From assembly GCF_902499115.1 (NCBI RefSeq), contig NZ_CABVPN010000001.1, positions 261,866 to 293,865 on the forward strand: a DNA stretch of 32,000 nt, given 5' to 3'. The notes under the pieces were generated by a model. It was not told the DNA's origin. It saw only the letters and a program-made list of their open reading frames with translations, and ran no database searches. The stretch comes from Burkholderia diffusa (GTDB lineage: Bacteria > Pseudomonadota > Gammaproteobacteria > Burkholderiales > Burkholderiaceae). Shown one piece after another: positions 7,983 to 27,428 of this stretch (its first letter is position 1; each line of letters starts with the position of its first letter). The translations under genes were made by a program, and so were the position numbers.

Positions 7983-7990
7983 ACGCAAAA

Positions 7991-8614: not shown

Positions 8615-8817
8615 AAAATGCGGCGAAACCGCGTCGTATGTGAATCCGCCACAAGTCCACGGAAGGTCTGTCAAACCAGCGCCTCGCTGCCTGCGACTGT
8701 CCATGTAATCGACATTTCCCCTACGGTTGGCCCAACGAGCCGCCAAGCGTTTCTCTAGCCGAATCGACACCAGCGCAGCCTCACGCTAAAGCAAAGCGCC
8801 AGAACGCCGTTAAATCG

Positions 8818-9513
8818 ATGCGGCAGCACGGCACGCGTCCTCCTCCGAAATTTCCTCAACATCTCATGATTGACACCGTACTTACACGCAAATTCGGCGA
8901 ACCTTTCCCAATCTTTGACTCGATCGAAGCGGCATCCGACGCAATCATAAAAGCGGCGTTTCGTCTCTACGTTGTGATGAACCCCAATCATTCGGCAGAC
9001 GATTTTCTAACGGAAATCCTCATACCTATAGCGCAGTCATCGCCTGAAAATCCCGCGCAGATCGAGGTTCGCGCATTCCAGAACCACTCGAAGCACTCAT
9101 TCATGATCTACATGCGGGCAATCTGCCATGCCTGCGCATACGTGCAGGCGGCGCGCAACGCTCACGAGGAAGGCCGCGACCGCGAAGGATGGTCCCATAT
9201 CGCCAACGCACACTATCTTCTGGGGTTCGCAGAGGGCGTTTTCGCGCTGGAACCTGCGCTGGTTGGTGTCATCTCGCGCCAAGGCAAGGCGGGCTCGACG
9301 GCGCGTAACGAAAAATATGACGCGTTGCGCCAATTCGCACGTGAGCTTGCTAAAAAGGGGGGCTACCCAAGCAAGCGTAATGCCGCGTTGTCCATCAAGC
9401 CGATGGTTCTAGCCAAAGCGAAAGCCGATGGAAAAGTAAATCTATCAGAAGCGCAGGCGGAACGCACCATTACCAAGTGGCTTGACGGTATGACGTTTGC
9501 CCGCAAACAGTGA
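8818..9513 (+). CDS. Hypothetical protein (start uncertain; alternative ATG at 8866)
   Basis: 231-aa ORF with protein-like composition. No recognisable motif. No convincing RBS at either candidate start. Confidence 0.5.
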   Translation: MRQHGTRPPPKFPQHLMIDTVLTRKFGEPFPIFDSIEAASDAIIKAAFRLYVVMNPNHSADDFLTEILIPIAQSSPENPAQIEVRAFQNHSKHSFMIYMRAICHACAYVQAARNAHEEGRDREGWSHIANAHYLLGFAEGVFALEPALVGVISRQGKAGSTARNEKYDALRQFARELAKKGGYPSKRNAALSIKPMVLAKAKADGKVNLSEAQAERTITKWLDGMTFARKQ

Positions 9514-9637
9514 ACCACTTACAGGCGAACGGTGTACGTGATGTAGAACACGGGATATTTTTTAAAGCCGCTCCGAAATAAAGTTTTCCTTGTCGATTAA
9601 CTGATCGACAATTATCTTAACTTTACAGGAGAATTTC

Positions 9638-10516
9638 ATGAACGCCTCCGCACAAATTTCGCGCATTACAAGTCGACGTAGACATAACCTCAAGGGCAAT
9701 CCCATGATTGCCCGCATCAAGATCGGCAGTCGCGATACACTGAACGTCAAGTGCAAAACGGAAAGTCGATCGCAAACGTCCGAGCCTCCCGAGCAACCAA
9801 CTACCAACAGCAAAAATTACGTCCGCCCCGCCTTTGATAAAGGCACTGTTCTACCGCAGTTTCGCGCCGCCCTTTCTGAAATTTCTGATCTCGGGAAGGA
9901 GATTACTGAAGTCGAGGAGGAATTTCGAACAAACATTCAGGATCGCGCTATTGCAGGGTTAGCGAAGATTCTTGAAGTACGCCGCGCATATTTCGATTCC
10001 GCCACCCCTGAGATCAGCAAAGTACTTCTCGACGATCTATATCAGCAGTGTAAAAACCATGGCCTCAAAGGTCGCACGATTAGAACGACCGAATTTCATC
10101 TTCTCTCGCGCTTGCTACGTAAATCGGATCGGAAACAGGCATCTGCCGACGCGAAAATCTTGATTCGAGCACACAACGAAGGACAATCGTCGGAGACTTT
10201 TCCTGAGTGGGTGAAGAAGCTTAATGGGCTAAACGCGATCAGAAAAGATATCGAATCTCACGAGAAGGGAAATCGCTCTAGTAAAGCTCGGAACGAGCTA
10301 GCTCATATCAAAAGGCAACTTTATGCGAGCGTGAAGAAAGGAACGGGATTTTGGTCTAGCCGCTTAGTCTTTCCATTTGATGGCCCACACGATACTTGGA
10401 CTGAATTGCTTCCGGAAGACAACTCATGGACAACGGTACTCGTCAAGAGAGAAGGGAATCAAGTGAAACTCTATGCTCTGCCGGCAGATGATAGTGATTC
10501 GCCGGCATCAACATAG
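9638..10516 (+). CDS. Hypothetical protein (292 aa)
   Basis: ATG preceded by CAGGAGAATTTC. Charged, helical-looking sequence with no recognisable motif. Confidence 0.6.
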   Translation: MNASAQISRITSRRRHNLKGNPMIARIKIGSRDTLNVKCKTESRSQTSEPPEQPTTNSKNYVRPAFDKGTVLPQFRAALSEISDLGKEITEVEEEFRTNIQDRAIAGLAKILEVRRAYFDSATPEISKVLLDDLYQQCKNHGLKGRTIRTTEFHLLSRLLRKSDRKQASADAKILIRAHNEGQSSETFPEWVKKLNGLNAIRKDIESHEKGNRSSKARNELAHIKRQLYASVKKGTGFWSSRLVFPFDGPHDTWTELLPEDNSWTTVLVKREGNQVKLYALPADDSDSPAST

Positions 10517-10584
10517 CCCACGTCGTGAAATTTTTAGGCTCCCCAGCTGATAATCGTCGGCGCCTTAAACTGAACTCATGCGGT

Positions 10585-10609
10585 GGAATGTCGGCCGGAC
10601 CGACATTCC
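10585..10609. repeat. Island palindrome copy a
   Basis: GGAATGTCGG-CCGGA-CCGACATTCC, with perfect 10-bp arms. Confidence 0.65.
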
Positions 10610-10847
10610 GAGCAACGACGAACATCGTCCACAACCGTGCCGGTGCTCGTTAAACAGAGAGGCGAACCGGGACGCCCGACTGCCCTGCTTTTCTTACGGA
10701 ACCGTTAGATTAGACCTTGGGGAGTAGCAAGCCAAAATCTCGTGCCTGCAAGCGACGCTCGCCGCTCTTGCGCTTGGCTCTGAATACGCTATACTTTTTA
10801 TATCGTTATAAATTTCATACCAGAACAGCCCTAATCCGGCCCACGCC

Positions 10848-11315
10848 ATGCGCGACTACCCACGGCAAGATATGTACGCGATCACCCACTTTCACAATTT
10901 CATGTCCTTGTACCAAGGACGCTTCGCAACCGCCCTTGCGAAAACCCTCAATACATCGGTGTTCGCAGCAAGTGCCCTCGACATCGCGCTGGCGACAGGT
11001 GCTATCTCACTCGACAAGCTGCATCTGCTGCTAGGATGCAGCCGAGGTCAGGCGATCGGCGGCGCTTTCGATCTGCAGGAACAGGGACTCGCCAAGGACA
11101 TCGAATCCACGAAAAGCCAGAGTGGGGAATACTTCCTCGTTCCCATCGATGAGCGATGCGAGGCCGCCCGGCTCTACCGGACAAAGCTGGAAAAATTGAG
11201 CCGACAGCAGGGCTTGTCTGATGCCTTCGACAAAACGCTGCCCGCTTTACAGGCAATCTTCCTGGAAGCGCTGTCCGCAATGGAAAGCAAACATATCAAT
11301 CAAAGCTCATCCTGA
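10848..11315 (+). CDS. Hypothetical protein (155 aa), possibly winged-helix-like
   Basis: ORF in low-GC island DNA. The segment ISLDKLHLLLGCSRGQAIGGAFDLQEQGLAK loosely resembles an HTH. Start uncertain. Confidence 0.45.
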   Translation: MRDYPRQDMYAITHFHNFMSLYQGRFATALAKTLNTSVFAASALDIALATGAISLDKLHLLLGCSRGQAIGGAFDLQEQGLAKDIESTKSQSGEYFLVPIDERCEAARLYRTKLEKLSRQQGLSDAFDKTLPALQAIFLEALSAMESKHINQSSS

Positions 11316-11909
11316 TACGATCCGTTTGTCCCCGTCGGCACCGTCTTTCCGCGTCATGTTGCGACGCTCGGCCGGGCTTGGAAGTACCGACAGCAGTATC
11401 TTGATGGTGTACAGGATGATTAGAGTGCCTGACAGGTCACCGACGAACATGGCAAAGAATCGTTCGCCAATGTTCGTCGTTTGCCCGCGCAACGCCAACC
11501 AGATGTTAGTCAACAGCGGATTCGCAACGGAAAAGGCAAGGGCTAGGACAAGCAATCGCTTCGGCGTGAGATTGGTCAGCGAGGCATGCAGGCCGTAATG
11601 CTCTCTTGCAAGCCGGTATGTCGCATAGGGAGCAACCGTCGCAATGATGCCACCAGCTATCGAGCGGATCGGATCGTTAGGAAAGAAGTACAGGAAGTCC
11701 ACCAGCCAGCTTGCTACAAGCAGGCCGATAGCGCCATCGCTACCGAGCAGCAATGTCGCAAGAAGCCTGACGCCCGACGGCAAGTAGATCCAGTTCACGC
11801 CACGCACGAACTCCGAATGCGTGAACACCTCTTGATTCACCCAGAGCGAAACAACGAAAACCAAGGCTGTGCCGATGACCGATGCGAACCGTAAGCGCCA
11901 GTTGCTCAT
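11307..11909 (-). CDS. Hypothetical integral membrane protein (~5-6 TM)
   Basis: Internal ATG at 11909 (MSNWRLRFASVIGTALVFVVSLWV...) is preferred over 12017, which would overlap the divergent regulator gene. Multiple hydrophobic helices. Confidence 0.55.
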   Translation of the reverse strand: MSNWRLRFASVIGTALVFVVSLWVNQEVFTHSEFVRGVNWIYLPSGVRLLATLLLGSDGAIGLLVASWLVDFLYFFPNDPIRSIAGGIIATVAPYATYRLAREHYGLHASLTNLTPKRLLVLALAFSVANPLLTNIWLALRGQTTNIGERFFAMFVGDLSGTLIILYTIKILLSVLPSPAERRNMTRKDGADGDKRIVSG

Positions 11910-12010
11910 TGAAGTACAATTCCCCGTTCCGATGTACACCGCCGACGCATCGATCTTCGTTTTCCGTACGGCGGTGTTAGCGTTCTGGTCAACGGAGCGT
12001 CGGACTCGAT

Positions 12011-12358
12011 ATGACACGCCCTGCTGATATCTACCTACGCTTTCTGCAACTTACTGAAGCCCTGCGCGGACTACCGTCGCTACCGGCGCTTGACCCACTC
12101 GAAGAAAAGATCCTTGAGTTCGTTGCTCGCATGACGCAAAAAAACGAGCGTCTCTCCGTACGCGACATGATGGCACAGAGTGATCTCGGTTCGCCGGCAA
12201 CACTGCACGCCCGACTCAAGTCGATGCGTGAAAAAGGCTGGCTCACACTTGGCGACACCGACGACTCGCGGCGCAAACAGATCGAACTCACTCCTGCCGC
12301 CCTAAAGCATTTCGATAAACTCGCCGAAGCGTTCGCCAGAGCCGCCAAGGGTACCTGA
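12011..12358 (+). CDS. MarR-like winged-helix transcriptional regulator (115 aa)
   Basis: LSVRDMMAQSDLGSPATLHARLKSMREKGWLTLGDTDDSRRKQIELTPAA has the HTH, wing and helix pattern of MarR-type proteins. Divergent from the membrane gene. Confidence 0.55.
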   Translation: MTRPADIYLRFLQLTEALRGLPSLPALDPLEEKILEFVARMTQKNERLSVRDMMAQSDLGSPATLHARLKSMREKGWLTLGDTDDSRRKQIELTPAALKHFDKLAEAFARAAKGT

Positions 12359-12369
12359 CTTCCCTCTGG

Positions 12370-12390
12370 ATTGTCGGTTAAACCGACAAT
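12370..12390. repeat. Island palindrome copy b
   Basis: ATTGTCGG-TTAAA-CCGACAAT. Part of a ~61-nt repeat (12353-12413) shared with 13567-13629. Confidence 0.7.
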
Positions 12391-12411
12391 TCGATCCGCC
12401 GCTCCGGAAAT

Positions 12412-12591
12412 TTACCGAACGGGCTTCATAGTGCCGTGACCTCCGCAACGCAAGCAACCGTCGTTGCTGCTCCAATTGTGGTTCGTACAGCGATGATCGC
12501 GGCATCCGACAGCGCCGCATTTCATGCAACGGTAGAGCGTCGCAGAGTGTTGACCTGCCTGATTGGGAATGCGACCTGCGCAACTTGCCAT
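12412..12591 (-). CDS. Small Cys-rich (zinc-ribbon-like) protein, 59 aa
   Basis: ATG at 12591 preceded by GGAGA. MASCAGRIPNQAGQHSATLYRCMKCGAVGCRDHRCTNHNWSSNDGCLRCGGHG contains CxxC...C...C...CxxC. Confidence 0.5.
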   Translation of the reverse strand: MASCAGRIPNQAGQHSATLYRCMKCGAVGCRDHRCTNHNWSSNDGCLRCGGHGTMKPVR

Positions 12592-12613
12592 GAGATTTTT
12601 CTCCGTAGGTTTT

Positions 12614-12856
12614 CTATACGTTCGTGACCCTGAATAGGCCTGCTTTGTCCGACGGCGCAAACCGGGCAATGCCGTTGCGCCGATTGAATAGTTGGACTGC
12701 TTTCTCAAAATACTGCTGATCGGTCAGCCGGTGCATGTCCTGTCCGAGCGACCAGCCGTTACCGAGTACGTGCGCCAGTTCCGGCCTGTTGTCATGCCTG
12801 AACGCAAGAGCAAACCGGCGACGTGCTTCTATCTGAGCAAAATTCGGGCGGCTCAT
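12614..12856 (-). CDS. Hypothetical protein, 80 aa
   Basis: Its ATG overlaps the recombinase stop (TGATG on the minus strand), suggesting translational coupling. No motif recognised. Confidence 0.5.
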   Translation of the reverse strand: MSRPNFAQIEARRRFALAFRHDNRPELAHVLGNGWSLGQDMHRLTDQQYFEKAVQLFNRRNGIARFAPSDKAGLFRVTNV

Positions 12857-13422
12857 CACACAAGATCCACGGCCTTGCGCTGCATGTCGTCGTTGACGTC
12901 GATGTATCGCTGCGTTGTCGAGATATCTCGATGTCCAGCAAGCGACATCAACACTCGCACGCCGACGCCCTTGCTTGCCAGATTCGTGATGAACGAGCGT
13001 CGGCCAGAATGGCTGCTTGCGCCTTGAATGCCCGCTTCCTTGTAGAGCCAGTGGAAGTACTGGCAGAGCGTGTTGGCCGTGAATCCGGCCCGCTTCTGCG
13101 TATAGAACAGCGGTTGTTCCGGTCGCGGATTCTTCAGGCTCGCAACATACGCGGCCAGCTCACGCCGCAATTTCTGCCCGAGGAAAACCGTGCGCGCATG
13201 TCGGCCCTTGGTCTGTTCTGGGGCAAGCCGGATTTCTGACTTGATCGAGCCATCCGTATCGAGCACGTCGCCCACGAACAGCGCGGCGACTTCTCCAACA
13301 CGCATGCCCGCCCAATGCGTCAGCAGCACCATCACTCGATTACGCAGCGCGTGACGTCGCAACGAGATATAGGTCAGTACCTGCTTGAGTTCCTTTTCCG
13401 TAAATGTCTTGGCCTGCTTCAT
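12856..13422 (-). CDS. Short tyrosine recombinase, catalytic domain only (188 aa, FimB/FimE-sized)
   Basis: ATG at 13422 after AGGGG. Full catalytic set: AGMRVGE (Arg), TKGRHART (Lys), HSGRRSF (His-x-x-Arg), LAGHRD (His), TTQRYIDV (Tyr). No N-terminal core-binding domain and no room for one before palindrome c. Confidence 0.8.
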   Translation of the reverse strand: MKQAKTFTEKELKQVLTYISLRRHALRNRVMVLLTHWAGMRVGEVAALFVGDVLDTDGSIKSEIRLAPEQTKGRHARTVFLGQKLRRELAAYVASLKNPRPEQPLFYTQKRAGFTANTLCQYFHWLYKEAGIQGASSHSGRRSFITNLASKGVGVRVLMSLAGHRDISTTQRYIDVNDDMQRKAVDLV

Positions 13423-13585
13423 TTCGCCCCTGAACAAATAAAAACCACGCCCAGAGGATGTATTCTTTAGTTATACGTATCAACAAATGAATGACACCGC
13501 GCAGATACCAGAGGAAACAAGCACTTGCGCAACAACCAAAGGTTTTAGCAAAAACCTTTAATTTCGACCTGATGCCGAAATGGAA

Positions 13586-13602
13586 TGTCGGTTAAACCGA
13601 CA
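13586..13602. repeat. Island palindrome copy c
   Basis: TGTCGG-TTAAA-CCGACA, with the same spacer and spacer orientation as copy b. Confidence 0.7.
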
Positions 13603-13904
13603 AGTGCGAGTGCGCTGCTGCGGAAATTTCTTGCTAACAACGCCGTTGAAGTGGAAACGGAAGTAAGGGGGAAGTGAAAAAGTAACAAATGTGATGTCGT
13701 CTGGCTATTTCTTATCGTATGTCCTACTCGACATTTGCTCTTCGCATTGCATCACATGTAGATATCTGTAATTTCTTCGAGCAGTTCTTCATCGGAATCT
13801 ATAACCGTAGTAAATCATTAAAGAGCCTCGCATGCTGAAGCTCTTCGTGTTGAAAGCTGCGAGGACATTTAGTCATCACGCAGCTAGGCGTTTCTGTCGG
13901 AACT

Positions 13905-14408
13905 TTATTCTTCGGGTATGTGGACGTTATCGTAGTCCACGTTGTCGGCGTCGCCTATGCCGACTTCTTTGGTGATGTAGTCGATCCAGCCTTCCGAGGT
14001 CAGAGATTGAATGTCGATCTGAACATTGCCGAAGTCTGTTTTAAGCCATGCGGTACGGATTGCACTGTCGATCAGTGCTTCGTCGGCACCTACGCGGAAA
14101 TTTCCGATCATACAGTGATAGTGCAGTTGCTTATTCGTTGCAAGACCTTCCAGAACAGGGATCACATGAACACTTGCACCGAATCGCTTGGCGGCGTTGC
14201 CGTACACGATGGAGTTCAGGCATTGAATAAATTGTCGGAAATTCTCTTTCGCCTCGATTTCCGTCAGATACCTTTGCATGAGCCCCTTGGGACCCATATA
14301 TTCGCAACGAGACTTCATCGTAAGCGTGACCGCATGAGTGAAATTAGATGCATGCTTACACATCCAATCCTGCGTCTCTTGCCTTAGTTTTTCGTTTTTG
14401 TTTGTCAT
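13905..14408 (-). CDS. HUH-motif Rep-like (rolling-circle initiator / inovirus Gp2-like) protein, 167 aa
   Basis: Three motifs in canonical order and spacing: FTHAVTLTM (motif 1, FxTLT-like), QLHYHCMIG (HUH), WIDYITKE (YxxK). Confidence 0.45.
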   Translation of the reverse strand: MTNKNEKLRQETQDWMCKHASNFTHAVTLTMKSRCEYMGPKGLMQRYLTEIEAKENFRQFIQCLNSIVYGNAAKRFGASVHVIPVLEGLATNKQLHYHCMIGNFRVGADEALIDSAIRTAWLKTDFGNVQIDIQSLTSEGWIDYITKEVGIGDADNVDYDNVHIPEE

Positions 14409-14521
14409 AGCCGTATTTATTTCAGCCAGGACAAAACAGCCTATATAACGTCGAAATTATGTTGATTTCACCAGTGGCCGAATACATCCTCCTCTGTATC
14501 GAAACGACATATGAGGCATAC

Positions 14522-14968
14522 ATGAGCGTAATTGCAAATCTGAAGATCGTCGCCGCTAAGCGTCCCGGCGCACTGCCGCAGATCGTACAGCGTCGTAACC
14601 GGCTGATCGCTCAAATCTGGGAACAGACGGAACTGGCGAAGGCTCAACAGGCCGGAACGTCGTTTACACCGACGAAGTTTCGCTCAGTTAAGGATGCCGA
14701 AACCGGCGAACGGCGTAACGTGGAAGTGCAGAAGCGCATTCGTGCTTGGTGGTGGACCGCAGAGAACGGCCGCGTCCACATGTTCGTCAAGTACGGTGCT
14801 AAGACGCTGGAACTTGCCAAGGGCAAGACGGCCATCGAGATCGGTGTTCTGGAAGACCTGATTCCGACGCTCGACACACTCAAGGCGGCAGTTACCGCCG
14901 GCGAACTCGATGCTCAGATCGAGGCTGCCAGTGGCCAGATGCGCTCAGGGTTTGTTAGCAAGAAGTGA
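14522..14968 (+). CDS. Conserved island-type hypothetical protein (148 aa)
   Basis: ATG at 14522 after GAGG. MSVIANLKIVAAKRPGALPQIVQRRNRL...RIRAWWWTAENGRVHMFVKYGAKTLELAKGK recalls, from memory only, proteins common on proteobacterial islands and ICEs. Confidence 0.6.
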   Translation: MSVIANLKIVAAKRPGALPQIVQRRNRLIAQIWEQTELAKAQQAGTSFTPTKFRSVKDAETGERRNVEVQKRIRAWWWTAENGRVHMFVKYGAKTLELAKGKTAIEIGVLEDLIPTLDTLKAAVTAGELDAQIEAASGQMRSGFVSKK

Positions 14969-14975
14969 AGTGCCT

Positions 14976-15000
14976 GGCAGGTCCGAACTTCGGACCTGCC
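14976..15000. terminator. Bidirectional hairpin between convergent genes
   Basis: GGCAGGTCCG-AACTT-CGGACCTGCC between the stops at 14968 (+) and 15010 (-). Confidence 0.5.
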
Positions 15001-15009
15001 ATTAATCAC

Positions 15010-15786
15010 TTATCGGTCTGTCGCAGGCTCTTGATACATTTTAAATCCCTCGACATGCTTGAGATCGAGCCGCCTGAATCGCATCAATCCCCCTTGAGAT
15101 GTTGGCCAAACACCTTTTATATCTGGCGAAACATGCACGGCATTTACACCGCCGCTGAGTTTTGTCGCATCCCACACACATGAACCGATGGCTTTAGGTT
15201 GATAGTTGCCGGGCACGCCTACTAAGGTGATCATCGCTTTACTCATCGCCAGTCCAACCCCAAGGGAAATTTCTGGCAGATTGTAGCGTTCCGCGATTGC
15301 GTCATTAATCAGCGTCCTCATACCACCGATACAGTCTTTCGCGGCACGGTATGCGAGCCGAACAGAACTTTCCCTATCGTCCTTGTCTACACTGAACAAT
15401 ACCAATCCGCCATCACCTAAATATTCTGTAACCATGCCATCTTTGAAGCCGCAGGTAACGGCGACAGCTGGGAGAAGTGCTGACGTTTCGTAGTAAACCC
15501 GTTGTAGCCCATTGACTTTCGCATTTTTTATATGCGTCTTGAGTCGTTGGGTGGATCCACGCATGTCAATTACCAGCGCGATAAACTCATCGACTTGCGG
15601 ATGATCTGCCGACACAACCCGATAACCCGGGATGTTTGAGTCGGCGCTGTCGGCAGCGTATGACTCCATTGACTTTTGTAGCCGTGCCTCTACCAACAAA
15701 TGCCCGACTTTTCTCCAATTGGACTCGGCACGATCGAGGCCTTGCTCGATCGCGGCACGCACCTTCGCAGTCTCATTATTGTTCAT
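15010..15786 (-). CDS. pycC: Class III nucleotidyl cyclase, Pycsar PycC-like
   Basis: Start ATG 15786 overlaps the upstream gene's stop (ATGA). Cyclase metal-binding motifs LVIDMRGSTQR and EYLGDGGLVLF. About 258 aa, single domain, paired with a cNMP-binding effector. Confidence 0.75.
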   Translation of the reverse strand: MNNNETAKVRAAIEQGLDRAESNWRKVGHLLVEARLQKSMESYAADSADSNIPGYRVVSADHPQVDEFIALVIDMRGSTQRLKTHIKNAKVNGLQRVYYETSALLPAVAVTCGFKDGMVTEYLGDGGLVLFSVDKDDRESSVRLAYRAAKDCIGGMRTLINDAIAERYNLPEISLGVGLAMSKAMITLVGVPGNYQPKAIGSCVWDATKLSGGVNAVHVSPDIKGVWPTSQGGLMRFRRLDLKHVEGFKMYQEPATDR

Positions 15787-16691
15787 CGATTTACTTTCGC
15801 GATGTGCGCGCGAACCTTCTTCCATGCTGCTGCCATATCGCGGTTCGGGGCATCATCGGATAGCTTTGCTGGATAGTCGATGGTTGTTACGCCAGCAAGA
15901 TCGCTCGGCAGCTTTATAGCTACGCCCTTCGGCTTCATCAAAATGGTTCGGCGGCGGCCAAGCCGTCCCATGAATAACCCAAGCTCGAATATGACGTTGT
16001 CTCGTGGGCTCGGGCTCCTCCCCTTGCGAGATGTTGTCAGATCATCATCTTGTGCGATTGCAATAGCAAAATCGGCCGTTTCAAGATGCTGTTCGAGGTC
16101 TTCGAGTGGATAACTGCTCACTCCAAAAACGTTGTCAGGCCAGTTCCAGAATCTGATATTTTCCTCATGCTCAAATGCAAGGACACCTGTTTCGGCGACC
16201 GGCAGAGCTTCAACTGAGGAAATCGCAAATACGTTTACCTTTTGATCTGCGCGGGCAAGTGCCTTGTTGCGTCGTTCCAAGCGACGCGCTAGCTCAGTAG
16301 CAATATGCTTGTATATCCGAGGAAATTGATCAGCCAACTCTATAAACTGAGACTCTGAGAGTTTGGCCGCCACAACAGTGCCATCGGCGACTACAGTTGC
16401 GGATCGCGGTAACGCTTCGATTGCGGCCATTTCACCCACGTGTCTACCCGCATCAACGCGATCAACCTCTTTCTTACCTACGACGATCTTCGTGCCACCG
16501 GTCAATAACAAGTAAACGTCGCTTGACTGATCACCCTGCACGATCAGCCTCTCGCCATCACGAAACTCGACAAGCTCACAGGTATCGGCCAGCCGCTCCG
16601 GCAAGCCGGGAATGTCCCGGCAAACTCCCTGCATTCCAAGCGCCTCAATGAGATTTTGACGACGCGCCTCTCCCTCGAACCTTTCTTTCAT
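15783..16691 (-). CDS. pycTIR: cNMP-binding domain fused to a TIR-like (CAP12/PycTIR-type) effector domain
   Basis: N-terminal cyclic-nucleotide-binding fold with phosphate-binding cassette GEMAAIEALPRSATVVA. C-terminal half has FAIAIAQDDDL...RDNVIFELGLFMGRLGRRRTILM...LPSDLAGV, typical of bacterial TIR-like NADase effectors. ATG at 16691; GTG at 16697 is also possible. Confidence 0.75.
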   Translation of the reverse strand: MKERFEGEARRQNLIEALGMQGVCRDIPGLPERLADTCELVEFRDGERLIVQGDQSSDVYLLLTGGTKIVVGKKEVDRVDAGRHVGEMAAIEALPRSATVVADGTVVAAKLSESQFIELADQFPRIYKHIATELARRLERRNKALARADQKVNVFAISSVEALPVAETGVLAFEHEENIRFWNWPDNVFGVSSYPLEDLEQHLETADFAIAIAQDDDLTTSRKGRSPSPRDNVIFELGLFMGRLGRRRTILMKPKGVAIKLPSDLAGVTTIDYPAKLSDDAPNRDMAAAWKKVRAHIAKVNR

Positions 16692-16826
16692 TATCACCCC
16701 GTTGCGTATAGCGAAATTTTCGTTCTTCGGCTAGCCAATGTACAACTGCAACTACGCTTCGTTAATTTGCAAGTATCGCGCATGGTGGATCACTCACGAT
16801 CGCCTCCCATATAAATACTCGCGCCA

Positions 16827-17030
16827 ATGACGGAGACAATGTCCATGCGATACCACGAAATCCTAGCTCGATCCGGTCTGTATGAAGTTGCAGACCTTGA
16901 ACAACAGCGCATCAAAGCGCAGCAGCAGGCTGCCAAGCGACAGACCGCCACCGCCAAGCGTGCGGACCTGACACACCGAATAGATAAGCTGAGGAAACAG
17001 CTTTCCGACCTCAACGCCAAGCCGATTTGA
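16827..17030 (+). CDS. Small coiled-coil protein (61-67 aa)
   Basis: ORF divergent from pycTIR. The best RBS (GGAGA) fits the third ATG at 16845. Q/K/A-rich heptad-like sequence. Its last codons lie inside a repeat shared with 18976-19020. Confidence 0.4.
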   Translation: MTETMSMRYHEILARSGLYEVADLEQQRIKAQQQAAKRQTATAKRADLTHRIDKLRKQLSDLNAKPI

Positions 17031-17042
17031 TCAGCCCTTGGT

Positions 17043-17065
17043 AAATGTCGGTCGACCCGACATTT
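17043..17065. repeat. Island palindrome copy d
   Basis: AAATGTCGG-TCGAC-CCGACATTT between convergent genes. Could also act as a bidirectional terminator. Confidence 0.65.
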
Positions 17066-17104
17066 GCAGTGAGCAAGAGCCGAGACTAAAGCCGAGGCAC
17101 TCGC

Positions 17105-17941
17105 TCACACTCCATTTCTCGCCGACTTGATGTCGAGGAGGTTGATTTGATCGATCTTGTCCTTGTGAATGACGATGGTCAATTTTGCCGGATACTTAAA
17201 TCGCATCTCGCTGATTCTGAATGTCCACAGCATTATTTTCAGCAAATCTTCATCGCCAATGTTCTTGTGACCTTTGATTCGCGTAATTCCCGACCCAAAG
17301 ACAGTGGTCGAAACGCTCTTTTGAGCGTACACATTGTTCACTTTATCCCAAAAATTTATCAAAAACTCCAGGTACTCCGGCATCGTCAGCAATGCCCTGT
17401 TGTTTTCATCGAACTTAGAGAATGCAGTAAGAAGATAATCCTTATAAAGACAAACTGTCCCGATTTGATATCGCCTCTTTTTACCCAGCTTTCTGGCCTC
17501 GTTACTTCCCACCACCTCACTGAGATCGAAAGCATAATTATCTATATAGTGATCCAATTCTGAGACAGGCGTACCGAGATGCTTCTGAATGAAGATACCG
17601 TTGAGGGACTTTTCGCCAATTATTTTATTGTCTACTAAAGTATCGAAGTACTCATTGAAAGCAATTGCTTTCAATCCCGATTCCTGAAATATATCGCCAA
17701 CCTTGACAGTGACATTACTTCCCTCTACGTCTATGTCGATGCTATTCAGATTGTTCGACCAAACCCACAGCGCCACGTAAATTACGGCTAACAACGCGAG
17801 GAAGATCCAACCACCGCGCAATTTCCAGTTAGCAGGAATATCAACAAATAGCACGACCACTGATAATGCACTGCCGATTACGGACGTGCTTCCAAGGAAT
17901 TTTTTGACAATTCGCTTATCAAAGAAACTTACCTTTGCCAT
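17105..17941 (-). CDS. thsA: Thoeris type II ThsA-like effector: 2 TM helices plus Macro-like domain
   Basis: N-terminal hydrophobic helices (LGSTSVIGSALSVVVLFVDI; GGWIFLALLAVIYVALWVW). These are followed by VKVGDIFQESGLKAIAFNEYFDTLVDNKIIGEKSLNGIF, which matches my recollection of the ThsA Macro family. Lies directly downstream of a TIR gene. Confidence 0.65.
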   Translation of the reverse strand: MAKVSFFDKRIVKKFLGSTSVIGSALSVVVLFVDIPANWKLRGGWIFLALLAVIYVALWVWSNNLNSIDIDVEGSNVTVKVGDIFQESGLKAIAFNEYFDTLVDNKIIGEKSLNGIFIQKHLGTPVSELDHYIDNYAFDLSEVVGSNEARKLGKKRRYQIGTVCLYKDYLLTAFSKFDENNRALLTMPEYLEFLINFWDKVNNVYAQKSVSTTVFGSGITRIKGHKNIGDEDLLKIMLWTFRISEMRFKYPAKLTIVIHKDKIDQINLLDIKSARNGV

Positions 17942-17971
17942 AGAGTTCGAAACTCGCTCGGGTGTTATTTT

Positions 17972-18535
17972 TTATGGCGTGTATCGATAGACATCGGGGT
18001 TCGCCTTACTCCCGACGACGAAGCCACTATTCAAAAGCGCACTTTTAATAACGCTTTTTTGCATAGGAACATGAAGTGTAGGCACGTTCTTCATTGAGTC
18101 GCGAAAAATAGGAAGATTGTTCCAGAGATTTTTCACCGTTTGCTTCAACGCCCCGTTCACCAGAAGGCTCTCCTTCGAGTCGTACTCGGGATATATAACG
18201 ATGACCGGCAGCCCTTGATCATTGATGCCATAGTCGATCTCTTCCCTGAGTGCCAAGGAATTTTTTGTGGCCGAGCTCAAAATTAGGACGATATTCTTCG
18301 AACTCCGAAGACGCTCCCTGAGTCGCGGCTTCAAGGTCAACTCCCAATTGCTACCGTCTCGGACGCTGTAGGTCTTGTCGTGCGCGTCATTAAAGGGAAA
18401 CGACGCGTCGGCCCCTTTCCACGTCCGAAGAAGGTTGTAGAAGCAGAAATCTTTCGTCGCATGAGCACCTAATGAACTAGGATTGAATGGCTCAGAGACA
18501 TAGAAGGCAGTGTAGTTTCCGTTTCGATACGCCAT
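17972..18535 (-). CDS. thsB: Thoeris ThsB-like TIR-domain protein
   Basis: 187 aa. MAYRNGNYTAFYVSEPF...YNLLRTWKGADASFPFNDAHDKTY...NIVLILSSATKNSLALREEIDYG is the bacterial TIR-like (DUF1863/ThsB) pattern. RBS GGGGAG. Confidence 0.7.
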   Translation of the reverse strand: MAYRNGNYTAFYVSEPFNPSSLGAHATKDFCFYNLLRTWKGADASFPFNDAHDKTYSVRDGSNWELTLKPRLRERLRSSKNIVLILSSATKNSLALREEIDYGINDQGLPVIVIYPEYDSKESLLVNGALKQTVKNLWNNLPIFRDSMKNVPTLHVPMQKSVIKSALLNSGFVVGSKANPDVYRYTP

Positions 18536-19000
18536 AACAACTCCCCTATGTGTAGGGAAAACGAGTGCATTCGAACTTCGATATGCATCACTTCTTGCAG
18601 TGATGCGAATTTATGACAGCTGCCCCGAGACAGCTGCAAATAACAACTGCGTCGGCGACCGAATACGCTCGGACTTGCTTGCAAATGAGCTGTCGGCATC
18701 GCAACGTTGAGGCCGCTTCGGAGCCTTTCGGCGATGTCTTGCTACTCTCGATCCGAGTGCTAACCGAAAACGGTCACTTGACTTGCAAGATTGTTTGCGG
18801 CCGAATGCGCTACCACATCGTACTTTTTGCCACCCCACACCGTCGCCGGTAAACACTACCGTAAACCTTTCATCAGATAAAGATCTGAACACAAAATACG
18901 CCGGAAAAACGCTTCCGTCACGCAAGATGTCGTACTCCGCAAGCCATGCACAACTCGGTGTCCGTTCCCGAATCGCAAGCCGATCTGACCAGCTTTCGGT

Positions 19001-19025
19001 AAATTGTCGGTCGAACCGACGTTTT
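19001..19025. repeat. Island palindrome copy e (imperfect outer arms)
   Basis: AAATTGTCGG-TCGAA-CCGACGTTTT. Part of a ~45-nt repeat (18976-19020) matching 17018-17061. Confidence 0.6.
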
Positions 19026-19031
19026 GGAAGA

Positions 19032-19069
19032 ACGAAGCCCTGTTCGCACGTAATCGAACAGGGCTTCGT
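19032..19069 (-). terminator. Strong hairpin downstream of the integrase gene
   Basis: ACGAAGCCCTGTTCG-CACGTAAT-CGAACAGGGCTTCGT, a 15-bp stem about 60 nt after the integrase stop. Confidence 0.45.
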
Positions 19070-19130
19070 CGTCAGAGAATTGCATTTTTCGAGGTTTCTC
19101 TTGTGTACGGTATACACAAGTTATCAGGAC

Positions 19131-20117
19131 TTATCCGAGCTTCTTCGCCAGTTCGCTCGCCGACGTGTGGTAGTACCGACTCAGCATCTGAACGTTCGAA
19201 TGTCCGGTCACGGATGCAAGCTCGATCACGTTCGGCAGCTTTTTAGCAAGACTCGTCGTTGCCATATGCCGTAGATCGTGAAAGTGAAAGTTTTCGATTC
19301 CGGCACGCTTGCACGCTCGCGGCCACGCACACAAGACAACGTTCTGGCTGATCGGAATAACGCGCTCGTCGATGCGCTCCAACCCCTCCAGAATCGCAAT
19401 CGCGGCACTGCTCAATGGAACATACCGATCCCTACCGTTTTTCGTCATCGGCAGATAGGCCGTGCGCTGATCGAAATCGACGTGCCTCCATTCCAGAGAC
19501 AGCAATTCGCCCTGCCGCATCGCTGTCTCCAGCGCAAGCTTCGCGAGCGGGAGCAGCCACCTGCTCCGTAATTCATGGCGCTCCGCATGCAGTTCATGCA
19601 GGAGGCGATCAAGCTCGGCAGGCTTCAATATGCGATTCCGCCCAGGCGGCAATCGGGGCTTTTTCACAAGCTTCGTCGGATTGCTTACTGAGAGTCCCCA
19701 TTCACGTTGCGCATGCGTGATCACGGCGCTGATCGTCGCGAGTTCGCGACAGACGCACGAGTTGGTAGCCACCTTGAGACGTTGATCGCGGTAATCGGCC
19801 AACAGACTGGCCGTCAGATTGCGCATGCTGTACTCGGCGATCTTGTGGCGCAGCATTTTGCCGATCCGATATTCTTCGCTGCGCCTGCTACGCTTGGTCG
19901 GCGTGATCGATTCCTTGTAACGCTCCAGCAGTTTGCCGAAGGTTATGTCGGTCGTACCTGCCGGATCGACCCACGTTCCGTCGTCCATCGCGGCTTCGAC
20001 GGAACGTGCCCAGGCTTGCCCTTCTGCCTTCGTTGCAAATGATTTGTACTGCGTAGGAAATCCCTTGCGATTAATTTTGACTTGCCAGCGTCCGTTGCGC
20101 TGACTGAATGTAGCCAT
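19131..20117 (-). CDS. int: Tyrosine-type site-specific integrase (328 aa)
   Basis: N-terminal MATFSQRNGRWQVKINRKG arm/core-binding region. Catalytic ETAMRQGELLSLEW (Arg), HFHDLRHMATT (HxxR), VTGHSNVQMLSRYYH (His, Tyr). Its start lies ~108 bp from attR. Confidence 0.9.
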   Translation of the reverse strand: MATFSQRNGRWQVKINRKGFPTQYKSFATKAEGQAWARSVEAAMDDGTWVDPAGTTDITFGKLLERYKESITPTKRSRRSEEYRIGKMLRHKIAEYSMRNLTASLLADYRDQRLKVATNSCVCRELATISAVITHAQREWGLSVSNPTKLVKKPRLPPGRNRILKPAELDRLLHELHAERHELRSRWLLPLAKLALETAMRQGELLSLEWRHVDFDQRTAYLPMTKNGRDRYVPLSSAAIAILEGLERIDERVIPISQNVVLCAWPRACKRAGIENFHFHDLRHMATTSLAKKLPNVIELASVTGHSNVQMLSRYYHTSASELAKKLG

Positions 20118-20130
20118 GTTTTTGCCTCTG

Positions 20131-20149
20131 AGTTGCAGTTGAGTTGCAA
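20131..20149 (+). repeat. GAGTTGCA x2 (putative integrase arm-type sites), right copy
   Basis: GAGTTGCA-gtt-GAGTTGCA, 14 nt upstream of the integrase start codon. Confidence 0.5.
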
Positions 20150-20223
20150 AAACATGATTTCGGACAATTGGAAAAGCTGGAAAGCCTCAGCCCACGGTCA
20201 AGTCAATGATATGACCCCAATTT

Positions 20224-20259
20224 TCAATTGATGCACTCGTCGGTAATCATCAAAGACAT
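20224..20259 (-). pseudogene. Displaced native 5' stub of the ferredoxin gene
   Basis: The minus strand reads ATG TCT TTG ATG ATT ACC GAC GAG TGC ATC AAT TGA ([11 protein letters not shown]). High-GC backbone sequence begins immediately upstream of it. Confidence 0.75.
20225..20252. repeat. attR core (28-bp direct repeat)
   Basis: CAATTGATGCACTCGTCGGTAATCATCA, identical to 6614-6641. Confidence 0.85.
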
Positions 20260-20318
20260 ACTGATCTCACTTCTTCAGGCCGGCGGCCGGCTTCGCAACG
20301 AAACCGGCCGGCGCCGCG

Positions 20319-20927
<609 letters not shown>

Positions 20928-21542
20928 TTATTCATCATTTTCGCGCCGCAGCAAATGAAAGTGAACCGCACCCGCCTTGCCGTGCTTCACCACCTGCCAA
21001 CCGGCCAGCGCTTCGTGGGCGGCCGGGTCGAGCTCCGCGCCCGTCTCGACGTACAGGGCGCCCTCCGGCGCGACGAGCGGCGCCGCCAGCGCGATCGCGC
21101 GATCGAGTACGGCCGGCTCACCGAACGGCGGATCGAGGAACACGACGTCGAACGCACCCGGGGTCAGCCCGGCCGCGAGCCGCAGCGCGTCGGCTTCCGC
21201 GACCTCGACCGAGCGTGCGCCGAGCTTGTCCTTGATCGCGCGCAGTTGCTGCGCCGCGCGCGGGTGGCGCTCGACCATCACGACGCTCGTCGCGCCGCGC
21301 GACGCGGCCTCGAACCCGAGCGCACCGGTGCCCGCGAACAGGTCGAGGCAGCGCCGGCCTTCGAGATCCTGGCCGAGCCAGTTGAACAGCGTCTCGCGCA
21401 CGCGATCGGGCGTCGGCCGCAGGCCGTCGAGATCGAGCACGGCGAGCGGCGTGCGTTTCCAGTCACCGCCGATGATGCGGATCGTGTGCGGCTTGCCACG
21501 GCCAGGGGGGGCCGTCGGGCGGCCGGAAGAGGAACGGGACAT
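20928..21542 (-). CDS. rsmD: 16S rRNA (guanine966-N2)-methyltransferase
   Basis: Internal ATG at 21542. RIIGGDWKRTPL, RPTPDRVRETLFNWL, LDLFAGTGALGFEAASRGA and the DPPF motif. Confidence 0.8.
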   Translation of the reverse strand: MSRSSSGRPTAPPGRGKPHTIRIIGGDWKRTPLAVLDLDGLRPTPDRVRETLFNWLGQDLEGRRCLDLFAGTGALGFEAASRGATSVVMVERHPRAAQQLRAIKDKLGARSVEVAEADALRLAAGLTPGAFDVVFLDPPFGEPAVLDRAIALAAPLVAPEGALYVETGAELDPAAHEALAGWQVVKHGKAGAVHFHLLRRENDE

Positions 21543-21744
21543 ACGGAATATCGACAACGGGGGGACCGGGTGCGCAGGAGGGCGCACCGCCAAACAGGCG
21601 CACGTTACCACAGCGGCGGCACCGGCTGACGCGAGTGCGCCGCCGCACTGATAAAATGCCCGGTTTCGGCCGCCATGCGCACGCACGACGGCCCGTCCGG
21701 CGCTGCGCCCTAGCGGCGCCCCGCCCTCTTCCCGACGTCAGACC

Positions 21745-22890
21745 ATGTTCAGCTTCTTCAAACGATTCAAGAAAACGCAGGAGCCCGACTCCGCGGAATC
21801 GCAATCGATCGATGCGCCGCAACCGGACGAACCGTCCGACACGCGCCAGGCGATCGAAGCGCCGCAAGCACCCGCGCAACCTCAGCAGGCCGCGCCTGCC
21901 GTCGTGATGACGGTCACGCCGACCAACGACGGCAGCGACGAAGTCGTCGAAGCGGTCGAGATCGTGCCGCCGCCGACGCAGGACGCCTCCGCGAAGAAAT
22001 CGTGGCTCGCGCGCCTGAAGTCGGGCCTCGCAAAGACGGGCTCGAGCATCACCGGCGTATTCGTCAATACGAAGATCGACGAGGACCTGTACGAAGAGCT
22101 CGAGGCCGCGCTGCTGATGTCCGACGCCGGCGTCGATGCGACCGAGTACCTGCTCGGCGCGCTGCGCGAGAAGGTGCGCGCTGGCCGGCTGACCGATCCG
22201 CAGCAGGTGAAGGGCGCGCTGCACGACCTGCTCGTCGAACTGCTGAAGCCGCTCGAGAAATCGCTGATGCTCGGCCGCGCGCAGCCGCTCGTGATGATGA
22301 TCACGGGCGTGAACGGCGCAGGCAAGACCACCAGCATCGGCAAGCTCGCGAAGCACCTGCAGAGCTTCGACCAGTCGGTGCTGCTGGCTGCGGGCGACAC
22401 GTTCCGCGCGGCCGCGCGCGAACAACTGGCGGTCTGGGGCGAGCGCAACAACGTGACGGTCGTCCAGCAGGAAAGCGGCGACCCGGCCGCCGTGATCTTC
22501 GACGCGGTCAGCGCGGCGCGCGCGCGCAGGATCGACGTGATGATGGCCGACACGGCCGGCCGCCTGCCGACGCAGCTGCACCTGATGGAAGAGCTGAAGA
22601 AGGTGAAGCGCGTGATCTCGAAGGCGCACGATGGCGCGCCGCACGAGGTGCTGCTCGTGATCGACGCGAACACGGGCCAGAACGCGCTCACGCAGGTGAA
22701 GGCATTCGACGATGCACTCGGCCTCACGGGCCTGATCGTCACGAAGCTCGACGGCACCGCGAAGGGCGGCATTCTCGCCGCGATCGCGCGGCAGCGCCCG
22801 GTGCCCGTCTACTTCATCGGCGTCGGCGAGAAAGTCGAGGACCTGCAGCCGTTCAGCGCAGTCGAATTCGCGGACGCGCTGCTCGACTGA
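21745..22890 (+). CDS. ftsY: Signal recognition particle receptor FtsY
   Basis: Acidic N-terminal region followed by an NG domain: GVNGAGKTTSIGKLA, DTAGRL, TKLDGTAKGG. Confidence 0.95.
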   Translation: MFSFFKRFKKTQEPDSAESQSIDAPQPDEPSDTRQAIEAPQAPAQPQQAAPAVVMTVTPTNDGSDEVVEAVEIVPPPTQDASAKKSWLARLKSGLAKTGSSITGVFVNTKIDEDLYEELEAALLMSDAGVDATEYLLGALREKVRAGRLTDPQQVKGALHDLLVELLKPLEKSLMLGRAQPLVMMITGVNGAGKTTSIGKLAKHLQSFDQSVLLAAGDTFRAAAREQLAVWGERNNVTVVQQESGDPAAVIFDAVSAARARRIDVMMADTAGRLPTQLHLMEELKKVKRVISKAHDGAPHEVLLVIDANTGQNALTQVKAFDDALGLTGLIVTKLDGTAKGGILAAIARQRPVPVYFIGVGEKVEDLQPFSAVEFADALLD

Positions 22891-22994
22891 ACGCCGCCGG
22901 CCCGCACCGCACGGGGCGCCTTCTGGCGCCCTTTTTTCATGCACGTCCGGAAGCCGTCAGCGGGCGGCCGGCTGACCCACGGCGTCATTCGGCG

Positions 22995-23639
22995 TCATTC
23001 GGCGTCGGGCTGCGCGCCGGGCTCGGCGGCCTTGAACGCGTCCAGCGTCGACGCATGATCGGCGATCCGCTGGATCGTCGGAAAGCGCGTCGTGTCGATC
23101 GAGAAACGGTTCGCGTTGAACACCTGCGGCACGATGCAGATATCGGCGAGCGTCGGCGTGTCACCGAAGCACAGCTTGCCGGTGCGCGGATCGTTCGCGA
23201 GGCGCGTCTCGAGCGATGCGAAACCCGCCTCGATCCAGTGCCGGTACCAGTCGTTCTTCGCTTCCTCGGACACCTTCAGCGAGTGCTTCAGGTACTTGAG
23301 CACGCGCAGGTTGTTCAGCGGATGGATCTCGCACGCGACCTGCAGCGCAATCGCCCGCACATATGCGCGGTCGACCGGCTGCTTTGGCAACAGCGCCGGT
23401 TCGGGATGCGTTTCCTCGAGATATTCGATGATCGCGAGCGATTGCTGCAGCGTGGCATTGCCGTCGATCAGCGTCGGCACGACCGCATCCGGATTCACCG
23501 CGCGGTAGGCGTCCTTCAATTGCTCACCGCCGTCGCGCAGCATGTGCACGGGAACCGTGTCGTACGGCAGCTGCTTCAGGTTCAGGGCGATCCGCACGCG
23601 GTACGACGCGGAACTGCGGAAATAGCTGTAGAGCTTCAT
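22995..23639 (-). CDS. maiA: Maleylacetoacetate isomerase (zeta-class GST)
   Basis: ATG at 23639. MKLYSYFRSSASYRVRIALNLK...VPTLIDGNATLQQSLAIIEYLEE. 214 aa. Confidence 0.8.
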   Translation of the reverse strand: MKLYSYFRSSASYRVRIALNLKQLPYDTVPVHMLRDGGEQLKDAYRAVNPDAVVPTLIDGNATLQQSLAIIEYLEETHPEPALLPKQPVDRAYVRAIALQVACEIHPLNNLRVLKYLKHSLKVSEEAKNDWYRHWIEAGFASLETRLANDPRTGKLCFGDTPTLADICIVPQVFNANRFSIDTTRFPTIQRIADHASTLDAFKAAEPGAQPDAE

Positions 23640-23820
23640 GGGATGTCTCTCTGGTTCGTATTCGGCCGGCGACTGCGTCCGCGGCGCACGCGGCACCGCC
23701 GGGAACCCGAGTTTAGCGCGCCGCGCCGCGTCGGCGCGCGCGGCCGTGCCCGTGCGATACTCGGGGCATTCCTCACCGCTCACCGCGCGGCCCGATGCCG
23801 GCCGCCCGCCCCACGCCCCG

Positions 23821-24813
23821 ATGACCGCTCCCCTCGACCCAGCAGCCTCGCCGTTTCCTTGCGCCCGCTTCATCAAGGAAATCGGCCGCGGCCCGCACGG
23901 CGCACGCGCGCTGTCCGCCGAAGACACGTTCGAGCTCTATCGCGCGATGCTCGATGCGCGCGTGTCGGACGTCGAACTCGGCGCGATCCTGATCGCCTAT
24001 CGCCTGAAGGGCGAAAGCGCCGACGAACTGGCCGCGATGCTCGCCGCCGCGCAGGCGTCGTTCGAACCCGTGCACGTGCAGGACGCCGCGTTCCGCCCGG
24101 TGTCGATCCCGAGCTACAACGGCGCGCGCAAGCAGCCGAACCTGGTGCCGCTGCTCGCGCTGCTGCTCGCGCGCGAAGGCGTACCGGTGCTCGTACACGG
24201 TGTCGAGCGCGATCCGGGCCGCGTGACGAGCGCGGAGATCTTCTCTGCGCTGTCGATCCCGCCGTCGACATCGCACGACGCGATCGAGGACACGCTCGCG
24301 GAGCGCCGCGTCGCGTTCGCGCCCATTGACGCGCTGGCGCCGCGCATCGCGCGTCTGCTGTCGCTGCGCGGCGTGCTCGGCGTGCGCAACTCGACGCACA
24401 CGCTCGTGAAGATCCTGCAGCCGTTCGCGCCGGCCGGGCTGCGGCTCGTCAACTACACGCATCCGCCGTACCGCGACAGCCTCGCGCAACTGTTCCGCGA
24501 TCATCCGGACGCCGCACTGGGCGGCGCGCTGCTCGCGCGCGGCACCGAAGGCGAAGCGGTGGCCGACACGCGGCGCCAGGTGCAGGTCGACTGGCTGCAC
24601 GACGGCGTGTGCGACACGCTGATCGAGCCAGAGCGCTCGTCGAGCGACGCGCCGCCTGTGGCGCTGCCCGAATCGCGCGACGCGGCCACCACGGCCGCGT
24701 GGACGGACGCCGTGCTGCGCGGCGAAATTCCGGTACCCGACACGCTTGCGCGGCAGGTCGAGACGATCGTGCGGATCGTACGAATCGAGCGGACAGCCCG
24801 GCTCGCACCGTGA
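23821..24813 (+). CDS. YbiB-like, anthranilate phosphoribosyltransferase-fold protein
   Basis: ATG at 23821. FIKEIGRGPHGARALSAEDTFELYRAMLDARVSDVELGAILIAYRLKGES is typical of the glycosyl transferase family 3 / YbiB N-terminus. Confidence 0.55.
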   Translation: MTAPLDPAASPFPCARFIKEIGRGPHGARALSAEDTFELYRAMLDARVSDVELGAILIAYRLKGESADELAAMLAAAQASFEPVHVQDAAFRPVSIPSYNGARKQPNLVPLLALLLAREGVPVLVHGVERDPGRVTSAEIFSALSIPPSTSHDAIEDTLAERRVAFAPIDALAPRIARLLSLRGVLGVRNSTHTLVKILQPFAPAGLRLVNYTHPPYRDSLAQLFRDHPDAALGGALLARGTEGEAVADTRRQVQVDWLHDGVCDTLIEPERSSSDAPPVALPESRDAATTAAWTDAVLRGEIPVPDTLARQVETIVRIVRIERTARLAP

Positions 24814-24985
24814 CCGGCGTCCCGGGCCGGTACGCCGTCGCGCCGGCCTTTCAACCGACCATTTGACACGCGCATGCATCCTGACATAGAGTTGTCGCCA
24901 TGCGTTCCTTTCCGAACACCCTCCGAATTACCTTCGGCCGCCTAGCGCGGTCGCTATCGCTACGACTAGCCTAAGGCTGTCGTAG

Positions 24986-26854
<1,869 letters not shown>

Positions 26855-26941
26855 CCGGCAGGTTTTCGCTTCAGGGTTCAAACGTCAAGCGAGCGGTGCG
26901 TGACCGCCCGTGCTGCGCGCAATCCGCGCCGCACAGGCAAT

Positions 26942-26965
26942 AAAAAGCGGCCCAGAAGGCCGCTT
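26942..26965 (-). terminator. Rho-independent terminator for the minus-strand gene at 27000-27383
   Basis: The minus strand reads AAGCGGCC-TTCTG-GGCCGCTTTTTATT. Confidence 0.5.
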
Positions 26966-26999
26966 CGGTCGGGACACGAAAAAGGAGCGCCACGCGCGC

Positions 27000-27383: not shown

Positions 27384-27428
27384 CGCCTGACTCCTCGGCA
27401 ACGCGCCCGCCGTGCGCGGGCGTGCGGA

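Follow-up and report, generated by a model that had tools for sequence, protein, structure and literature searches.

How did a Thoeris defence operon of Burkholderia diffusa come to lie between two short direct repeats, and are these repeats recombination sites or the remains of something else? In the 32,000-nucleotide (nt) stretch of contig NZ_CABVPN010000001.1 analysed here (the window, whose numbering is used unless a locus label such as L001, L009 or L198 is given), the genes thsB and thsA belong to a genomic island and are bracketed by two copies, d and e, of a repeat of about 45 nt. The initial annotation had taken this arrangement for a cassette-style acquisition, in which thsB-thsA and some upstream DNA inserted as a unit next to a pre-existing site and duplicated it. 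Comparison with related islands points to a different history. We propose, with a probability of about 0.6, that d and e are backbone remnants left after the cargo regions of two related islands were joined, through tandem integration followed by deletion.

The similarity between the two copies is far above background. Local alignment of 16700-17200 with 18660-19160 gives 17018-17065 and 18976-19024 as the best match, with identity in 41 of 49 columns and one gap (~84%). Its score of 56 compares with 19.4 +/- 2.2 for shuffled sequences (maximum 34), and no other 500-nt piece of the window scores above 31. For the slightly shorter pair aligned by hand before (17018-17061 and 18976-19020) we obtained the same count, 38 matches in 45 positions. 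The anatomy described at that time was also recovered: copy d opens in the last codons of a small open reading frame (sORF) that ends ..NAKPI*, and copy e keeps an equivalent ..NRKPI* with no gene attached. We call S the unit made up of the last sORF codons, a hypervariable spacer and a palindrome. Comparison with other islands carries the S homology of d to ~17069 (homology to 20 loci stops at 17065-17069), while the sORF-end homology of e probably starts at 18970. Copy e runs on without a break into an integrase segment whose identity is 97.6% with L001 and 96.8% with L198. In eight other island lineages, one and the same site is homologous to d as well as to e.

That site is present once where Thoeris is absent. 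Many related islands share a common order, namely integrase, stem-loop terminator, S, sORF, variable cargo and the backbone gene DUF6641. In the B. seminalis island (L009), window 14480-17065 aligns to L009 13678-11097 and window 18976-29367 to L009 11144-777, and the same 48 nt (L009 11097-11144) match both d and e. An identical single-copy collapse is found in L001, L002 and L169 and in B. multivorans and B. vietnamiensis islands. The expectation that related islands without Thoeris would carry one repeat copy exactly at the collapse point is thus borne out, and relative to its kin the window has a 1.96-kb extra block flanked by duplicated S. A scan of 22 representative island variants revealed no further duplication of S, and in the species collection no genome has more than one S.

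Further information was obtained from the nearest Thoeris relative. Among 5.8 billion proteins, the nearest ThsB (87% identical) is that of Paraburkholderia sp. A1RI-2L, whose island (L198) belongs to the same family and occupies the same chromosomal site. Its order is integrase, S1, sORF1, a 1.1-kb leader, thsB, thsA, S2, sORF2, other cargo and DUF6641. Here the direct repeat measures ~265 nt (L198 7662-7924 and 10536-10800; 223/268 identities, 83%). It takes in the DNA ahead of the sORF, the sORF in full and S as far as CCGACGTTT, that is, two complete sORF+S modules, and its outer edge is the ordinary border of the cargo hotspot (window 16811). Moreover, S2 is separated from the thsA stop by 66 nt that are a fragment of DUF6641, codons ~119-141. 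This relic matches the DUF6641 genes of four islands at ~69% identity, with a score of 43 against a null maximum of 32, and is oriented as an intact DUF6641 flanking that cargo would be. Thoeris in L198 has sORF1, S1, the terminator and the integrase on one side and a DUF6641 piece on the other. Because backbone remains on both sides of it, the complete cargo region of one island appears to have been joined to that of another. The identities of the modules agree with two sources: L198 copy 1 matches L001 and L200 at 91-92%, and for the window d module and L198 copy 2 the identity to everything else is 78-83%. Judged by these values, the two sORF+S copies represent different lineages and not one target.

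The short repeat of the window can be derived from the long one of L198. The window lacks ~280 nt that hold the promoter and body of sORF1: its alignment to L198 breaks after 18960 and resumes at AAGCCGATCTGA, the junction reading GAATCGC directly followed by AAGCCGATCTGA. In L198, ATCGCAAGC lies upstream of sORF1 and AACGCAAAGCC at the sORF1 end. Since these two flank sORF1, a deletion between short direct repeats is likely. As the window has lost the integrase-proximal sORF, copy e is read from this alignment as the stump of a second, once-complete sORF+S module.

We hypothesize that, by the simplest route, a Pycsar island and a Thoeris island integrated in tandem at one ferredoxin attachment (att) site. 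A deletion would then have run from just after the S of the Pycsar island, through the terminator, the integrase and the internal att, into the DUF6641 gene of the Thoeris island. Its end point in DUF6641 would be expected near CTTGCAAAGGGCAAGA, and TTTGCA in the S flank with CTTGCAA in DUF6641 offers a possible microhomology for the joining. Thoeris would in this way become bracketed by two sORF+S modules of different ancestry. The later microhomology-mediated loss of the ~280 nt would have removed the integrase-proximal sORF, its last five codons and S staying behind as copy e, and erosion in the window lineage would also have taken most of the DUF6641 piece. The order of these events, and the passage through tandem integration plus deletion, we infer from the relics just described and from the tandem remnants of relatives. 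Such remnants are common in the family: in L001, L003, L163, L182 and L198, the integrase-side att is followed by island-left-end sequence and not by host DNA (Table 1), and some of these remnants include a winged helix-turn-helix (wHTH), membrane-protein or transporter gene. In L001, moreover, two cargo blocks are separated by a 3' fragment of DUF6641. That integrative elements form composites by accreting in tandem and then losing DNA by deletion is well established (PMC5704250).

Several observations weigh against this proposal. Neither a tandem array with both intact islands nor a single-cargo Thoeris island of this family was found among the loci with exact ThsB or sORF, or with a conserved 24-mer of the leader, which had no match in genome or metagenome collections; the tandem route thus rests on relics. 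Nor did we find a near-identical empty site, since every exact match to ThsB or to the sORF lies in this same architecture. The window has no internal att copy, so that accretion is deduced and not seen. The DUF6641 relic is clear, by sequence comparison, in L198 only: the window's own 39 nt at the corresponding place (17066-17104) are not significantly similar to DUF6641, and the ~25/41 positions that they share with the L198 relic and DUF6641 genes are suggestive but not significant alone. A junction ancestral to the window and L198 is plausible but not proven, because their Thoeris blocks are only ~80% identical. Finally, the distal junction lies 3-7 nt from a conserved palindrome, which is unexpected for a purely random deletion.

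This last point leads to the palindrome itself and to the cassette reading, one part of which stands: the block is extra compared with relatives, and an empty site with a single copy exists. The other part, insertion beside a ~45-nt site that was thereby duplicated, has the 265-nt modules and the DUF6641 relic of L198 against it; for a target duplicated by insertion the copies are too diverged (84%), and S is single-copy in other islands. In its most specific form, this reading would have a circular Thoeris cassette, with an S-like site of its own, recombine with the resident S through one of the island's tyrosine recombinases and leave two hybrid S copies. We consider this improbable, although a good deal speaks for it besides the single-S empty sites. 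Both copies contain TGTCGG-N5-CCGACA, a 17-nt perfect inverted repeat, of which six sites are present in the window when one mismatch is allowed, where 0.16 would be expected. Five are in the island and comprise all the exact copies, and a further island site with a 4-nt spacer is found at 6933; some one-mismatch palindromes were discounted as lying inside coding regions (DUF6641, sRec, coaD). Across S lineages the stem is invariant beside a hypervariable spacer, and changes in the stem do not compensate each other. Breaks in homology are concentrated near palindromes, and the island encodes two tyrosine recombinases, the integrase and the smaller sRec. A second direct repeat pair of ~47 nt (12367-12413 and 13581-13629, score 59), made of the palindrome and a tail ending GGAAATTT, brackets sRec together with an 81-amino-acid (aa) open reading frame. 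Yet the Thoeris block is not a site-bounded cassette, because L198 has the 265-nt gene-containing repeat and, between S2 and thsA, the DUF6641 relic. Moreover, e is bounded on the left by a deletion junction and not by a site edge, S is not duplicated elsewhere in the variants and genomes covered above, and breakpoints fall outside the palindromes, at distances that vary (+3 to +7, +22 to +37, +26). Thoeris homologues elsewhere share coding DNA only: in eighty ThsA loci from other taxa the common part is 17107-18535, never the leader or the repeats, and plasmid matches to the block are likewise coding only, with none to phages. Neither recombinase comes near the integron-integrase thresholds (18.9-23.4 bits for the island integrase and 25.9-47.7 for sRec, against cut-offs of 265 and 435 in the NCBIfam models). 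No attC-like site or S array was found in a comparison of anatomy only, which set the 17-nt perfect palindrome against the imperfect attC of 57-141 nt. On integrase scores, site anatomy and lack of arrays we reject an integron. An undescribed, integron-like shuffling inside the island, with the palindromes as sites of sRec or the integrase and modules such as the Thoeris block being moved, seems to us very improbable. Given these varying distances, the single S of other islands and the recombinase scores, together with the presence of palindromes in L009, which is without sRec, the HUH-like protein and the wHTH protein, the palindrome is unlikely to be a recombination site, and it looks like a candidate protein-binding inverted repeat. 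Many relatives have two palindromes 43 nt apart upstream of sRec. A likeness between S and the att core (shared TCGGTAA) was too short to mean anything.

Ordinary homologous recombination offers another way to the same structure. Thoeris with an sORF+S segment could have recombined with the resident module through ~260 bp, by a Campbell-type or unequal exchange and with no tandem stage. The L198 repeat is long enough for RecA-dependent recombination, the islands are mosaics whose breakpoints fall where conserved backbone genes begin or end, and for P2/P4 hotspots it has been proposed that cargo is exchanged through recombination between conserved flanking sequences (PMC9122126). However, copies that are only 83-84% identical make a poor substrate, a prior illegitimate event would still be needed to join S to the DUF6641 relic, and the tandem remnants of relatives are left unused. 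We therefore regard this route as possible but doubtful. Chance similarity, or target-site duplication by a transposase, has in its favour only the presence of direct repeats around an inserted block, and we give it almost no credit. The alignment score exceeds every shuffle, and both copies are homologous to the same site in the eight lineages mentioned above. Transposition is expected to leave short identical repeats, not 49 nt at 84% (or 265 nt at 83% in L198); thsA and thsB are the only genes inside the repeats, and no transposase was found in the block in the open reading frame list or with Pfam. Transposon target-site duplication was accordingly discarded on repeat length, divergence and gene content. 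The joining of two cargo regions by tandem integration and deletion is the reading that we retain, and the features on which it draws are collected in Table 1.

Table 1. Position of the repeats, the Thoeris block and the other island features (window coordinates, except where a locus label is given).
Feature	Coordinates	Strand	Description
attL	6614-6651		38-nt direct repeat at 5' end of ferredoxin gene (6382-6648, -); left island border
Palindrome family (A)ATGTCGG-N4-5-CCGACAT(T)	6933-6948, 10589-10605, 12372-12388, 13586-13602, 17046-17062, 19005-19021		Island only; recurs in related islands
sRec	12856-13437	-	Catalytic-domain-only tyrosine recombinase; Pfam Phage_integrase E=5.2e-27
DUF6641 backbone gene	14459-14968	+	Pfam PF20346, E=1.6e-15; left flank of normal cargo hotspot
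Pycsar cargo	15010-16697	-	PycC 15010-15825 (PADLOC E=2.3e-9), PycTIR 15783-16697 (PADLOC E=1.5e-94)
sORF	16827-17030	+	Small conserved backbone gene, 61-67 aa, ends NAKPI*; right flank of normal hotspot
Copy d of S	17018-17069	+	Last sORF codons, variable spacer, palindrome 17046-17062, TTTGCAG
Non-coding stretch between S and thsA stop	17066-17104		Stem-loop; candidate decayed DUF6641 relic
thsA	17105-17941	-	N-terminal transmembrane segments and Macro domain; Pfam ThsA_Macro E=2e-62; PADLOC ThsA E=2.4e-125, full length 1-278
thsB	17972-18535	-	TIR-like; Pfam ThsB_TIR E=1.8e-25; PADLOC ThsB E=1.3e-76
Thoeris leader	18536-18975	-	440 nt untranslated upstream of thsB; right end is the likely deletion junction
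Copy e of S	18970-19024	+	Putative relic of second sORF (..NRKPI*) and palindrome 19005-19021
Stem-loop	19032-19069		Between S and integrase 3' end; 15-bp stem
Island tyrosine integrase	19131-20117	-	Pfam Phage_integrase E=5.6e-30; right island end
attR	20225-20262		Second 38-nt copy, 89% identical to attL; followed by host sequence and coaD (20319-20867, -)
Tandem-partner remnants between integrase-side att and coaD	L001 9408-9893; L003 7998-9901; L163 2669-4312; L182 7538-7891; L198 6386-6460

The block between the repeats is a Thoeris operon, as the initial annotation had recognised, and Pfam and PADLOC agree on both genes. With a Macro-domain ThsA encoded beside a TIR-like ThsB, the pair belongs to Thoeris by its domain composition, and we take it to be of type II. 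Two parts of the leader (18822-18960 and 18536-18618) are homologous to the L198 leader. The next-nearest ThsB, P0022, sits in an unrelated restriction-modification/helicase island.

The operon is carried by an integrase-borne genomic island, identified as such by att repeats, integrase, GC content and variable occupancy of the site in relatives. The island measures ~13.6 kb (6614-20262), has a low GC content (~0.50 inside vs ~0.67 outside, the drop lying between the two att copies) and lies beside coaD, where it has entered the 5' end of a ferredoxin gene. This gene receives a new start region from the left end of the island. About 180 nt inside that end, a 75-nt inverted copy (92%) of ferredoxin codons 11-34 is found at 6832-6906, and it is kept in L003, L007 and L009. 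The normal hotspot of the island is filled by the Pycsar pair, whose two reading frames overlap by ~40 nt and which also matches Pfam cNMP_binding and CAP12-PCTIR_TIR. Homologues of the sORF form 31 clusters, all from Burkholderiaceae-type islands, with an invariant C-terminal N-x-K-P-I. The stem-loop beside copy e is probably a bidirectional terminator, to judge from its fold (-24.4 kcal/mol for the DNA of 18990-19085, z = -5.0), and it is kept in the single-S islands L001, L009, L169, L180, L185 and L190. Rfam gave no match in the island, and promoter and terminator scans gave background level only. Another palindrome, the near-perfect CTTGTGTA-CGGTA-TACACAAG at 19100-19121, lies ~10 nt beyond the integrase stop, and it is here, at 19111-19135, that nine other islands lose homology with the window; a similar motif is present near the island end in L169 and L171.

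The island also encodes membrane proteins, a wHTH protein (12011-12358) and a small HUH-like protein. The latter, 167 aa long and encoded at 13905-14408 (-), has a weak Pfam REP_ORF2-G2P match and shows, by eye, an HUH-like motif (LHYHCMI) as well as YITK, which fits YxxK; a possible role is that of a rolling-circle Rep or relaxase-like enzyme of the island. The wHTH gene (+) and a 236-aa membrane-protein reading frame (-) overlap at their predicted 5' ends (12011-12017), where one of the two start codons is probably miscalled.

The family to which the island belongs is marked by integrase homologues at 70-98% identity, which lie in islands that occupy this coaD-ferredoxin site in Burkholderia, Paraburkholderia, Caballeronia and Cupriavidus. 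These islands measure 3.5-13.6 kb and differ in content across ten species. The integrase cluster at 90% has 55 members, including B. multivorans, B. vietnamiensis, B. cenocepacia, B. gladioli and B. pseudomallei. The present island is also carried by the B. cenocepacia chromosome CP100144.1 (L163). In many of the islands DUF6641 is followed by the genes for the HUH-like protein and sRec and by the wHTH gene. The sORF-DUF6641 interval is a mobile-element defence hotspot: its cargo may be Pycsar, DUF3800 with AbiTii and AbiU2, a helix-turn-helix protein with an M78 peptidase, a JAB/E1-like set, or a serine recombinase with ParB. Homology breaks at 14980-15017 in 17 loci and at 16811-16829 in 19 loci. 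P0146 and P0162 are ordinary single-sORF islands. Beyond DUF6641, L009 has an extra two-gene block (14272-16324) encoding proteins of 311 aa and 369 aa, the second with a DGKQR motif and DUF262/GmrSD-like by eye; the block is probably another defence cargo. A literature search found no paper describing the ferredoxin/coaD island family, which is weak evidence of absence; the family is apparently conventional but undescribed.

These results show how one small island came to hold Pycsar and Thoeris, that is, cyclic-nucleotide and ADP-ribose-type (ADPR-type) defence, side by side. If two cargo regions were joined as we propose, stacking of cargo from two related islands and erosion of the redundant backbone are enough, and no dedicated cassette mechanism is needed. 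When a defence operon is flanked by short direct repeats, these can be what is left of a duplicated backbone and not recombination sites, which helps in the reading of defence islands. The work also outlines a Burkholderiaceae island family with a defence hotspot between a 61-aa gene and DUF6641.

On this reading, the origin of d and e is ordinary island evolution, a new example of a known process. The closest parallel is with integrative and conjugative elements (ICE), integrative and mobilizable elements (IME) and cis-mobilizable elements (CIME) of the ICESt1 type in Streptococcus thermophilus (PMC5704250), where elements of the same specificity stack at one att and deletions fuse them into composites that keep backbone remains. 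Here too, tandem remnants stand beside the integrase (L001, L003, L163, L182, L198), and sORF+S and DUF6641 relics lie between cargo blocks. The present islands differ in being small (6.5-13.6 kb), in lacking conjugation genes and in their target, the 5' end of a ferredoxin gene in place of a tRNA gene or a gene's 3' end. The P2/P4 defence hotspots (PMC9122126) likewise have a conserved backbone around a variable slot, and in our islands homology breaks at the edges of the flanking genes. However, this is an integrative island without phage structural or packaging genes, and it has two stacked cargo blocks with a duplicated flank between them. With integron cassettes (IntI, attI, attC) it shares palindrome-containing direct repeats that bracket a gene block near a tyrosine recombinase. 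In contrast to these cassettes, there is no IntI and no array, the palindrome is perfect and 17 nt long, the block includes a 440-nt leader of its own, and the repeat represents what is left of a gene.

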